Shown here piece after piece: positions 3,331 through 12,557 of a DNA stretch of 64,000 nucleotides. Position 1 is the stretch's first letter; every line of letters starts with the position of its first letter. The notes under the pieces were generated by a model. That model saw only the letters and a list, made by a program, of their open reading frames with translations. It was not told the DNA's origin and did no database searches. The position numbers and the translations under genes were made by a program. The stretch is from NCBI GenBank assembly GCA_022340305.1, contig JAJDOF010000108.1, positions 4,964 to 68,963 on the forward strand, in the 5' to 3' direction. The stretch is from Gammaproteobacteria bacterium (GTDB taxonomy: Bacteria > Pseudomonadota > Gammaproteobacteria > GCA-001735895).

Positions 3331-5957
<2,627 letters not shown>

Positions 5958-9984: not shown

Positions 9985-11196
9985 ATGTCCCAGTTCAACA
10001 ATATCGTTCGCCTGAGTTTTCGTGATTACAGCCACGAGTGGCGCATGTCGGGTTGTTTTATCCTGGCACTGGCATCGGTGCTGGCGCCAATGATGATACT
10101 GTTCGGGCTGAAATTCGGGATCGTAACCACGATGGTCAGCGGGTTGATTGAAAATCCGGCAAATCGCGAGATCAGCCCGATCGGCAGCGGGCGCTATGAT
10201 GACACCTGGATTGACGCGCTGCGCGACCGTCGCGATGTGGCATTCATCATTCCAAGAACCCGTGCGCTGGCCGCGACCATCCAGCTCAAGAGTTCGACGG
10301 CTAAGCGTATCCTGTCTACCGAATTACTCGCTACCGCGCCAGGGGATCCATTACTTGCCGGGGTTAGCCGCTTGCCGAAGAATTATTTCGAAGTCATTCT
10401 CAGTCACAGCGCCGCCGATAAACTCAATGCCAAGGTCGGTGATGAAATCGATGCCAGCCTGGCGCGCCAGTTCAAAGGTAAACGCGAGCGCGTACATTTG
10501 CCCCTGGAAGTCATCGGCGTCACCGGCGCCCAGGTCATTTCGCGCAGCGTCGCATTTGTGAATCTCAAATTACTGCTTGCCAGTGAGCAGTTCAAGGACG
10601 GGCGTATGGTGGTAGACCTGGGATGGCGGGGTAATATCGGCACCCCGGATGGGCGGGTATATCCTTCGTTTCGGCTCTACGCGAAGTCCATTTACGATGT
10701 TGCCGGGCTTGTTAGCGTGCTTGAAGAACAAGGTAGCAACGTGAAGGCAAACGTCGCCGAAATTTCGACGGTGCAGTCGATCGACGATAATCTCACCGTC
10801 ATTTTCTGGATTATCGCTTTTGTCGGCGCCACAGGCTTTGCCTTTTCGCTGGGGGCAAGCCTTTGGGCCAACGTAGATCGCAAACGCAAGGAATTGAGCG
10901 TATTGCGCCTGGTAGGTTTCAAGAGCGCACGCATCGTCTTGTTCCCGGTACTGCAGTCCTGTTATACAGCGGTTCTCGGCTGGTTACTCGCGGTGCTGGT
11001 TTACCTCGCTTTCGAATATCTGCTCAACACCTTCCTGGCACCGCGCCTCAATCTCGACCGTACCTTGTGCTTTTTACTGATCGAGCACTTTCTGTGGGCG
11101 CTGGCGTTGACTTTCGTGATTGCGATTTCGGCCGCAATTCTCGGCGGCTTACGAGCCGCCGGAATTGAACCATCCGACGGCCTGCGGGATATTTAA
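9985..11196 (+). CDS. FtsX/MacB-type ABC permease (TagS-like)
   Basis: N-terminal TM helix, large periplasmic loop, C-terminal three TMs with VDRKRKELSVLRLVG and IEPSDGLRD. Confidence 0.8.
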   Translation: MSQFNNIVRLSFRDYSHEWRMSGCFILALASVLAPMMILFGLKFGIVTTMVSGLIENPANREISPIGSGRYDDTWIDALRDRRDVAFIIPRTRALAATIQLKSSTAKRILSTELLATAPGDPLLAGVSRLPKNYFEVILSHSAADKLNAKVGDEIDASLARQFKGKRERVHLPLEVIGVTGAQVISRSVAFVNLKLLLASEQFKDGRMVVDLGWRGNIGTPDGRVYPSFRLYAKSIYDVAGLVSVLEEQGSNVKANVAEISTVQSIDDNLTVIFWIIAFVGATGFAFSLGASLWANVDRKRKELSVLRLVGFKSARIVLFPVLQSCYTAVLGWLLAVLVYLAFEYLLNTFLAPRLNLDRTLCFLLIEHFLWALALTFVIAISAAILGGLRAAGIEPSDGLRDI

Positions 11197-11200
11197 CCAC

Positions 11201-11218
11201 TGTAAGTCTTTTCCTACA
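11201..11218 (+). promoter_or_regulatory. GacA/UvrY-type binding box
   Basis: TGTAAG-TCTTTT-CCTACA has one mismatch to the consensus TGTAAG-N6-CTTACA; a second CCTACA half-site lies at 11235-11240. Confidence 0.65.
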
Positions 11219-11295
11219 AAGAATAGTGCTGCAGCCTACATTAAAAAAAGCCTTGCCGAGTAGGGGAGGCCCGCTGCTACGCATACCATAGAAAT

Positions 11296-11437
11296 CGTGT
11301 GCGGATGGATTCGCAACACGGAGATGTAACCTGGACTCATTCCAGCGCATCGCAGGCAGGATGCCTTGCAGCAAGCTGTGAATGATCAAGCAGGTAATCT
11401 TCGGGTCCTCTTACCTTCGGGTTTGAGGACCCTTTTT
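11296..11437 (+). ncRNA. Putative CsrA/RsmA-sequestering sRNA (RsmY/RsmZ/CsrB-like); 5' end approximate
   Basis: Five GGA motifs in 60 nt, some in hairpin loops (ATGGA, ACGGA, CAGGA); -10-like TACCAT at 11284-11289; upstream GacA-like box; strong intrinsic terminator. Confidence 0.65.
11403..11437 (+). terminator. Rho-independent terminator
   Basis: GGGTCCTC-TTACCTTCGGGTTT-GAGGACCC followed by TTTTT. Confidence 0.85.
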
Positions 11438-11543
11438 ATTGGCAGCGTTTTATGGCATTTACGCTCGCCAGCCAAAAGGCTGCATTGCCAATAATGACGC
11501 GCTGTAATCGCTTGTCGTCAAGACTGTGGTAGCATTGCCGCCC

Positions 11544-12557
11544 ATGCAGGGATCTCAGATCACACAACAGTTAAAGCCGGTTTATTTGCTGGCAAGTGCC
11601 GAGCTGTTATTAACGCGGGACTGGCTTGATGACGCCAGAACTGCGCTACGTGAAGCCGGTTTCGAAGATATTTTGAACCTGCAAAGCGATATCGGATTCG
11701 ACTGGCAATCGTTGTTGCAGGAGGGTGATATGTTGTCACTGTTCTCGAGCTGCAAATGCCGTATCGTGACCTTGCCGAGCGGCAAACCCGGCCAGTTGGG
11801 TAGCAAGGTTATTCAGGAATTGTGTGAAAATCCGGGTGAGGGTAATGTCTATATATTCGTCACCCCGCCACTCGATGGGCAAACTCGCAAAACCAGTTGG
11901 TGCAAGGCGATACAGGCGGCTGGCGCAATCGTCGAAATCAAGCCGGTTTACGATAATCAGCTGGCCGAGTGGTTACGCCAGCGAGCGCAGTACAAGGGTT
12001 TCAGTATCGATAACCAGGCGGCTCAGTTTCTTGCCGTCTGCACCGAGGGTAACCTGTTGGCGGCGGACCAGGAACTGGAAAAGTTGTCGATTCGTTTTGC
12101 GGGCCAGGACAGCATCGATTTTGAAACCATCCAGACTTCGGTCGCGCAGTCGGCACGTTATAGTCATTTTCTGCTGGTTGACGCCTGCCTTGGCGGCCAG
12201 AGCCGTCGTGCCCTGCGTATATTGAAAAGCCTGCAGGCCGAGGGCTATGCCAGTACCCAGCTACGCTGGGCGCTGCAGAATTCGCTGCAACAACTGGATC
12301 GACTCAAGCTGGCAGAATCGGGTGGAACCCTCGGTGATCGCAGCTGGCAGGAACTGCGCATCTGGCAAAGCAAGCAACGGCTTTATCGGCTGGCTTTATC
12401 GCGCCTGAGCGGCGCGCAGATTGAGCGTTTCCTGCAAAGCTGTGCTACATTAGATCGCCTTGGCAAGGGGCAACAGGACAGCGATTTTCCCGACCAGGAA
12501 TGGTTCGAGATCAAATCGCTGGTGATCGAGTTCAGTGGTGCCAATTCAGTGGTGTAA
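11544..12557 (+). CDS. holA: DNA polymerase III delta subunit
   Basis: LKPVYLLAS.E.LL, SLFS and EGNLLAADQELEKL motifs; position between lptE and nadD; alternative start at 11526. Confidence 0.9.
   Translation: MQGSQITQQLKPVYLLASAELLLTRDWLDDARTALREAGFEDILNLQSDIGFDWQSLLQEGDMLSLFSSCKCRIVTLPSGKPGQLGSKVIQELCENPGEGNVYIFVTPPLDGQTRKTSWCKAIQAAGAIVEIKPVYDNQLAEWLRQRAQYKGFSIDNQAAQFLAVCTEGNLLAADQELEKLSIRFAGQDSIDFETIQTSVAQSARYSHFLLVDACLGGQSRRALRILKSLQAEGYASTQLRWALQNSLQQLDRLKLAESGGTLGDRSWQELRIWQSKQRLYRLALSRLSGAQIERFLQSCATLDRLGKGQQDSDFPDQEWFEIKSLVIEFSGANSVV

Follow-up and report, generated by a model that had tools for sequence, protein, structure and literature searches.

A Candidate GacA-Activated, CsrA-Sequestering Small RNA between an FtsX-Type Permease Gene and holA in Uncultured Gammaproteobacteria

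The small RNAs (sRNAs) RsmX, RsmY and RsmZ of Pseudomonas are one to two hundred nucleotides (nt) long, and the RNA with which this article is concerned is likewise short. Pseudomonas Rsm RNAs are described as carrying multiple unpaired GGA motifs, several of which are needed to sequester RsmA (PMC2375449), and the CsrB/CsrC-type RNAs as being controlled by BarA/UvrY (PMC1488887; PMC3171408). Among the criteria drawn up for Csr/Rsm sRNAs by Kulkarni et al. (2006) is a conserved upstream site of 18 base pairs (bp) (PMC1488887), and the sequence TGTAAG-N6-CTTACA is cited as the UvrY/GacA box (PMC3171408). Here, we describe a locus in a 64,000-nt stretch of DNA from a Gammaproteobacteria bacterium (GCA_022340305.1, contig JAJDOF010000108.1), the whole of which is called the window below and supplies the coordinates. 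Positions 11201-11437 probably form a self-contained gene on the plus strand, encoding an sRNA that would be activated by GacA and would sequester CsrA. The locus is intergenic, with the gene for an FtsX-type permease (9985-11196) on one side and holA (from about 11526-11544) on the other.

It is conservation in relatives that lifts this feature above chance; the single sequence by itself is suggestive, not compelling. When 60 relatives were searched at the DNA level, the RNA body was matched in 16 of the 36 genomes of the same genus, while the 24 genomes from outside it, which belong to other families in the class, gave just one 22-nt hit at chance level. The 16 loci and the window share a palindrome close behind the upstream gene, a -10-like hexamer at one offset (17/17), a GGA-rich body and a terminator. 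RNAalifold arranges these 17 sequences into four hairpins and a long-range helix, with compensatory changes in 14 of 26 pairs. A covariance model of 11296-11437, named R1, matches 11296-11436 at 118.7 bits (E = 7e-28), its only match in the genome. R1 also matches 44 of the 61 genomes of the genus and, in one copy, 55 of the 79 genomes of the order; the latter cover 4/4 genera and 28 of the 38 high-quality genomes. Across 50 homologues, 95.6% of pair cells hold standard pairs and 23 of the 26 pairs have changed on both sides, values reached by none of 500 shuffles; sliding the partners leaves 30-48% paired. The elements of the locus are as follows:

11201-11218, no strand assigned: GacA/UvrY-type palindrome TGTAAG-N6-CCTACA (TGTAAGTCTTTTCCTACA), a putative upstream activating sequence, read in the sequence.
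11235-11240, plus strand: extra half-site-like CCTACA, 17 nt past the palindrome; its TAC is invariant in 17/17, its flanks are variable.
11284-11289, plus strand: -10-like hexamer TACCAT, at the same aligned position in 17/17.
11296-11437, plus strand: sRNA body of about 142 nt, from model R1; its 5' end is predicted, and it ends in the T run of the terminator.
11297-11319, plus strand: hairpin 1, with UGGA in the loop (GGA at 11307-11309), from the fold; 4/4 helix pairs with compensatory changes, 93% of cells paired.
11320-11327, plus strand: conserved A-N-GGAGAUGU, in which a GGA resembling a Shine-Dalgarno sequence precedes the 5' arm of helix 2.
11331-11345, plus strand: variable hairpin 2, CUGGA-CUCAU-UCCAG, inside helix 2; its length varies among homologues.
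11354-11366, plus strand: hairpin 3, AGGC-AGGAU-GCCU, which folds with GGA in the loop (11359-11361); 93.2% paired, 4/5 pairs compensatory.
11389-11401, plus strand: near-invariant AGCAGGUAAUCUU (13 nt), directly before the terminator; columns A97-A102 and C104 are invariant.
11403-11437, plus strand: intrinsic terminator with an 8-pair stem and 3 inner pairs (hairpin 11403-11432), then UUUUU (TTTTT at 11433-11437).

An earlier sequence-only reading had already placed the palindrome, the -10-like hexamer and the terminator at these positions, and the hairpins and motifs that it listed were found again: the looped UGGA of 11297-11319, CUGGA at 11331-11335 and GGC-AGGAU-GCC at 11355-11365. Its count of five GGA motifs within 60 nt was likewise right, the five spanning 59 nt (11303-11361); the stem of the terminator contains a further one (11427-11429). 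Query base 107, which is position 11296, is where the best match at DNA level in a relative starts. The segment 11290-11440 folds at -65.2 kcal/mol (z = -6.0), and none of 200 shuffles is as stable. Within it, GGAGAUG occupies 11320-11326, and the 5' arm contained in 11320-11327 pairs with GCAUC at 11347-11351 to form helix 2, in which 5/5 pairs are compensatory and 96.2% of cells are paired. The outer helix of the terminator is 99.7% paired, with compensatory changes in 6/7 pairs. The long-range helix GGAGAU/AUCUU(C/U) of the single-sequence fold is 87.8% paired, versus 86.5% in shuffles, and competes with helix 2, which is well supported. Around UGGAUGA, a hairpin CUGCU/AGCAG was rejected as unsupported: its 3' arm is invariant and its 5' arm varies without compensation (alignment A1, by eye). 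A conserved peptide is also unlikely, for the ATG of the hairpin 1 loop occurs in 6/17 sequences only; as for the ATG within 11320-11327, GGAGATG here runs straight into TAA, so that no peptide is encoded from it in the window copy.

The region upstream of the RNA is conserved in a distinctive way. The palindrome begins 5 nt past the permease stop codon (11194-11196). Scored as TGTA[AG]G-N6-C[CT]TACA in the 48 of 50 homologues whose upstream flank reaches 120 nt (it is shorter in the other two), it matches at 12/12 positions in 35, at 11/12 or better in 43 and at 10/12 or better in 46, and it starts 93-97 nt (mode 95) ahead of the RNA model start, with a single exception at 72 nt. In the promoter alignment the columns TGTA.G and C.TAC are invariant in 17/17. 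The palindrome, a TAC about 34 nt past the box start and the -10 are the only invariant upstream features, the intervening sequence being variable, and this pattern reads as a phylogenetic footprint left by a regulated promoter that lacks a -35. No -35 was found by a generic promoter scan of the locus, nor is one conserved in the 17-sequence promoter alignment; its lack would fit an activator-dependent promoter. Most relatives have TATAAT or TATACT as their -10. The usual form of the box in the lineage is TGTAGG-N6-CCTACA, the window copy reads TGTAAG-N6-CCTACA, and the canonical TGTAAG-N6-CTTACA is present exactly in one homologue.

Strict matches to the box pattern number two in the 4.35-megabase assembly, one of them being 11201-11218, and 157 across the 79 genomes, versus 18 for a reversed-pattern control. 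Four of the seven loci of genus g27 have a separate terminator-like hairpin and T run just upstream of the box, so there the RNA should need its own promoter. Three relatives have a strict box about 50 nt ahead of their own gacA-like gene (G067:C90:27536-27553, G030:C188:1446-1463 and G009:C168:3936-3953), which ties the motif to the GacA-like regulator and hints at autoregulation. Upstream of the gacA-like gene of the window's own genome no strict box was found, the best match being 9/12.

On the functional definition of a Csr/Rsm sponge, a cognate CsrA and a GacS/GacA-type system are present in the same genome. A canonical CsrA is encoded by a 72-amino-acid open reading frame (ORF) that scores 90.6 bits, above the Pfam cut-off. 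A UvrY/SirA/GacA-like response regulator on contig C135 scores 260 bits in NCBIfam versus 147 for the next family; its gene is followed by a uracil-DNA glycosylase gene and then, two genes downstream, by uvrC. A BarA/GacS-like hybrid kinase (contig C123) matches the BarA model from end to end at 530 bits. Of the 79 genomes of the order, 68 have CsrA (38/38 high-quality) and 70 have the GacA-like gene (37/38 high-quality).

Against Rfam 15, the window as a whole gives no match at gathering score, and none of the Csr/Rsm families (RsmY, PrrB_RsmZ, RsmX, RsmV, CsrB, CsrC) appears in 11000-11700 even at E up to 10. In 19 relatives the Csr/Rsm models return a single row, RsmV (RF04320), whose 12.6 bits against a gathering score of 100 are noise. 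Since no Csr/Rsm model matches, this is not a known Rfam family; the RNA would work like RsmX, RsmY and RsmZ, yet it is not a member of those families. The sequence-only reading had suggested a probably new CsrA-sponge sRNA and named three computational checks, each of which supports it: the Rfam search finds no known family, the csrA, gacA/uvrY-like and barA/gacS-like genes are all in the genome, and covariation across relatives is strong and is accompanied by a conserved box, -10 and GGA sites.

In the 50-sequence alignment, GGA recurs at six structural positions in hairpin loops or free stretches:

Hairpin 1 loop: 49/50 homologues.
A-N-GGAGAUG junction: 49/50 homologues.
Variable insert (hairpin 2 region, at least one GGA): 43/50 homologues.
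Hairpin 3 loop: 45/50 homologues.
GC-AGGAN-GC mini-hairpin: 49/50 homologues.
UGGAUGA before the terminator: 38/50 homologues.

Outside the terminator, homologues hold a median of 6 GGA (range 3-8). The window copy has one strict AGGA, three A(N)GGA and five GGA in 110 nt, and keeps four of the six conserved sites, namely those of the hairpin 1 loop, the GGAGAUG junction, hairpin 2 and the hairpin 3 loop. Ranked by GGA density in the manner of Kulkarni et al., the window RNA is no outlier in its own genome, and none of the eight windows inspected from this ranking resembles a Csr RNA. Three of the four GGA-richest windows (C131:29581, C6:10240 and C140:17514) are tandem repeats, with units such as GGAATTCG or of about 47 nt.

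The other strict box of the genome heads a second sRNA, so that both boxes front a GGA-rich, terminated small RNA. This RNA lies at C139:3903-4050 on the minus strand (locus L114), divergent from a prolyl-aminopeptidase-like gene (pip), and has a strict box at 4131-4148, the -10 TATACT, four GGA, a conserved UUCUCUCCUCGAGA stretch and a terminator. That the box at C139:4131 is a mere site of the pip gene was considered and rejected, the RNA gene lying on the other strand. R2, a model made from 4 sequences of this second family, matches 48 of the 79 genomes of the order and 45 of 60 in the genus, and a strict box stands about 98 nt upstream of the R2 RNA in the genomes listed. At the offset of the extra half-site, the second family has CTGAC in 4/4 loci and CTGACA in 3. 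Strict boxes, 1-3 per genome, were seen in five genomes, high-quality or single-contig, that R1 does not match. In three of the five the box has the pip gene on one side and, on the other, a different RNA of the opposite strand that is GGA-rich and terminated. R2 is present in 12 of the 17 genomes of the genus that lack R1. Pseudomonas has the pair RsmY and RsmZ, to which the two RNAs here are parallel, and by this analogy the C139 RNA probably acts alongside the window RNA.

The sequence anatomy, its conservation and covariation, the fixed spacing and the occurrence of all three partner proteins in the genome are matters of observation, and a mechanism can be proposed on them. The GacA/UvrY-type regulator of C135, phosphorylated through the BarA/GacS-type hybrid kinase of C123, would bind the palindrome at about -95 to -78 and activate a sigma-70 promoter that has a -10 and no -35. 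The transcript would start near 11296, end at the intrinsic terminator and expose its GGA motifs in hairpin loops and free stretches. CsrA dimers binding to these sites would be titrated off mRNA leaders, and CsrA-dependent translational control would be relieved.

A bolder reading, unlikely in our view, applies to the order as a whole, a group of uncultured and partly symbiotic sulfur-cycle Gammaproteobacteria. Here, GacA would directly control little beyond a handful of sRNA genes, its box would have drifted symmetrically to TGTAGG-N6-CCTACA, and the RNA would also be bifunctional through AGCAGGUAAUCUU. This element, which surpasses some of the GGA sites in conservation, can pair with the conserved GGAGAU and might act as a turnover switch, or as a base-pairing module that gates the number of exposed GGA sites. 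Its GCA[AG]GTA is found in 38/50 homologues. An antisense-target search with it in the genome gave 105 hits at no more than 2 mismatches, scattered, mostly within coding sequence and without pattern. One 12/13 antisense match lies just past the ATG of a lipoprotein-like ORF on C32.

Several points weigh against a GacA-activated sponge, or at least against reading too much into this copy of it. From the evidence above we infer transcription, GacA binding and CsrA sequestration. Windows with at least five GGA per 110 nt make up 1.15% of those in this genome, so that GGA density alone is not beyond chance; a single motif of the window copy fits strict AGGA/ARGGA, about three of its GGA are predicted unpaired, and the CUGGA of hairpin 2 is predicted paired. 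Two conserved GGA sites have been lost here and now read GCAGCAAGC and UGAAUGA. The -10 (TACCAT) is weaker than that of most relatives, and the R1 score (118.7 bits) lies under most of the genus; the window copy is a somewhat eroded and the weakest-looking member of its family. R1 itself is unmatched in 24 of the 79 genomes, including 10 of the 38 high-quality ones, and the alignment of 50 homologues used for covariation was fitted to R1, which favours the structure. The generic promoter scan calls no sigma-70 site, for want of a -35, and the terminator scan recognises only the inner part (11419-11432 and the T run), its yield of one terminator-like site per 900 nt being at chance level (shuffles give 1.3). 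By simple arithmetic a strict box is expected by chance about once per genome, where two are observed. The predominant TGTAGG...CCTACA deviates from the canonical box at two symmetric positions, for which reason GacA is named as its presumptive binding protein. Finally, the GacA-like protein (260) falls under the curated NCBIfam cut-off of 280 and the BarA-like one (530) under that of 890, and the curated GacA cut-off is passed by 0/79 genomes of the order.

Some of these points lend themselves to other explanations. The palindrome could drive an sRNA that does not act mainly by CsrA sequestration and instead base-pairs with mRNAs, or binds another protein, through AGCAGGUAAUCUU. The 13 nt of this element are more strictly conserved than several GGA sites, of which the window copy retains just four in six, and Pseudomonas RgsA is described as a Gac-dependent RNA with a single GGA that does not sequester RsmA (PMC2375449). 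However, RgsA is also described as having no palindromic upstream sequence, unlike the RNA here (PMC2375449), the antisense hits of AGCAGGUAAUCUU are scattered and mostly fall within coding sequence, and six positionally conserved GGA sites in loops and free stretches are the signature of a sponge; a non-sponge RNA is improbable. There is rather little chance that the RNA binds CsrA while its palindrome serves a regulator other than the GacA/UvrY orthologue. The lineage consensus TGTAGG-N6-CCTACA does differ from TGTAAG-N6-CTTACA, and the GacA-like protein scores under its curated cut-off, but within the family position 5 can be either A or G and position 14 either C or T (the window copy and the one canonical box are instances), a GacA-like gene is near-universal in the order, and in G067, G030 and G009 that very gene has a strict box about 50 nt upstream.

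The locus might also be no separate gene, the RNA fragments then arising by read-through or processing from the 3' untranslated region and terminator of the VWA-ABC-FtsX operon. Because no terminator intervenes between the permease stop and the box, which begins 5 nt further on, operon transcripts must enter the box region, and the order permease-RNA-holA is conserved across the order. Against this stand a -10 at a fixed position in 17/17 and a box at a fixed 95 nt, a palindrome conserved while its flanks vary, which speaks for promoter function, and the separate terminator-like hairpin ahead of the box in 4/7 g27 loci, leaving this explanation a very slight chance. Hardly credible is a cis-acting leader or attenuator of holA, suggested by the position of the RNA upstream of holA in the genomes examined (confirmed in 3/4 extra loci): the terminator is strong, no conserved alternative anti-terminator was found in the folds, and a conserved extended -10 that belongs to holA itself, TGnTAGCAT, lies about 9 nt ahead of the holA ATG. 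To our knowledge, the combination of a GacA box with multiple GGA loops has no role in attenuation. A GacA-activated, CsrA-sequestering sRNA thus remains the preferred reading.

The gene order in the window is phoH, ybeY, corC, lnt, leuS, lptE, the genes of a 221-amino-acid protein, a VWA protein, an ABC ATPase and the FtsX-type permease, and then the sRNA, 3' of which come holA, an aldehyde-dehydrogenase-family gene and a nucleotidyltransferase gene. Segment 6572-11196 is thereby a four-gene module that interrupts the classical leuS-lptE-holA-nadD cluster between lptE and holA; its members are the 221-amino-acid protein, without family, a VWA-domain protein of 665 amino acids, the ABC ATPase and the FtsX-type permease, without NCBIfam match. 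The sequence-only reading had seen a module resembling a type VI secretion system (T6SS) regulator next to the RNA, an idea that found no support, these neighbours within a phoH-ybeY-corC-lnt-leuS-lptE/holA-nadD housekeeping cluster giving no hit to any T6SS family. The order permease-RNA-holA is maintained across the order: holA was confirmed downstream of the RNA in three of four extra loci checked, and the fourth, a g28 locus, has the permease upstream and downstream a partial ORF without Pfam hit. Another gene neighbourhood for the g27 copies was considered and rejected, 3/3 g27 loci checked lying between the permease gene and holA.

Two further elements were noticed around the RNA. A TGnTAGCAT extended -10 occupies 11527-11535, about 9 nt ahead of the likely holA ATG (11544), and the same or a close extended -10 with a nearby ATG stands at the matching place in several relatives' flanks; holA may thus have its own promoter and a leaderless mRNA, in which case the listed GTG start at 11526 would be wrong. 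In g27 loci L089, L092 and L094 (1-150 in each), the stretch between the permease gene and the box contains another structured element, about 130 nt long and ending in a terminator of its own, and two of these copies give weak, sub-threshold matches to a PyrR binding site model (29-31 bits vs 54).

Outside the order, the searches were made at the DNA level and covered the 24 genomes of other families and a pattern scan of 185,579 species genomes. The scan found the RNA core in 25 records: 21 metagenome-assembled genomes (MAGs) of Gammaproteobacteria, 2 labelled "Proteobacteria", 1 mislabelled Polaribacter and 1 Olavius algarvensis Gamma 3 endosymbiont, which NCBI files under unclassified Gammaproteobacteria. 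The Polaribacter sp. MAG contig (JBLHID010000111.1, locus L030/L016) carries a gammaproteobacterial permease-RNA locus, and its label is probably a binning or labelling error. Genome G020, of the same genus, has two near-identical R1 copies (C448:29043-29191 and C430:7407-7555), which could be a duplication, a strain mixture or assembly redundancy. Marine sediment metatranscriptome contigs (X1, 0.06 of words shared) yielded two pieces on the permease gene, at 10741-10784 and 10847-11096 (85-93% alike), and none over 11140-12000, an outcome that is neutral as to expression of the RNA.

Through the candidate, the Gac/Csr cascade is extended to an order of uncultured gammaproteobacteria, for which it supplies a concrete RNA gene, a covariance model and a promoter anatomy. 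Besides many sediment genomes, the order contains the Gamma 3 symbiont of Olavius algarvensis, a gutless worm; R1 matches a scaffold of this symbiont at G061:C1:788131-788277. A full-text literature search, judged from its listing and abstracts, returned no paper joining that symbiont with CsrA. With the window RNA and its C139 partner annotated, metatranscriptome studies could tell which state the Gac/Csr switch of these organisms is in. The annotation would also clear spurious ORF calls from the gap, in which the sole overlapping ORF is a minus-strand frame of 113 amino acids without support. For the specialist this is a solid but expected find, since an RNA of this sort is to be expected in a gammaproteobacterium that has CsrA and GacA.

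How, then, does the RNA stand beside those already described? It is well supported that its sequence family is new and its regulator class familiar. Four of the five sequence criteria of Kulkarni et al. (2006), the other one being motif density, are found at the locus, which is intergenic, has a Rho-independent terminator, repeats GGA in loops and free regions, and carries an upstream 18-bp site of UvrY/GacA type (PMC1488887). With Pseudomonas RsmY, RsmX and RsmZ, as they are described, it shares a TGTAAG-N6-CTTACA-type upstream palindrome, several GGA in loops or free stretches, an intrinsic terminator and the presence of more than one gene per genome (PMC2375449; PMC3171408). Unlike them, it has no Rfam sequence or structure match and a box that is mostly TGTAGG...CCTACA, and it adds an extra conserved half-site, the near-invariant AGCAGGUAAUCUU and a fixed place between the FtsX-type permease gene and holA. 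Pseudomonas RgsA is similar in being a small terminated RNA, Gac-controlled in that organism, with GGA in an unpaired region, but it is reported with a single GGA, without upstream palindrome and without sequestration of RsmA, whereas the RNA here combines a palindrome with several conserved GGA (PMC2375449). The likeness to CsrB/CsrC of E. coli and to CsrB1/CsrB2 of Vibrio and Shewanella lies in the UvrY-box promoter, the AGGA/ARGGA motifs in loops and the terminator (PMC1488887; PMC3171408); covariance-model homology to CsrB/CsrC is absent. The scale is different too: CsrB/CsrC-type RNAs are given as about 416-421 nt, with 21 motifs in each of the Vibrio fischeri pair, while the RNA described here has about 142 nt and 4-6 sites (PMC1488887; PMC3171408).

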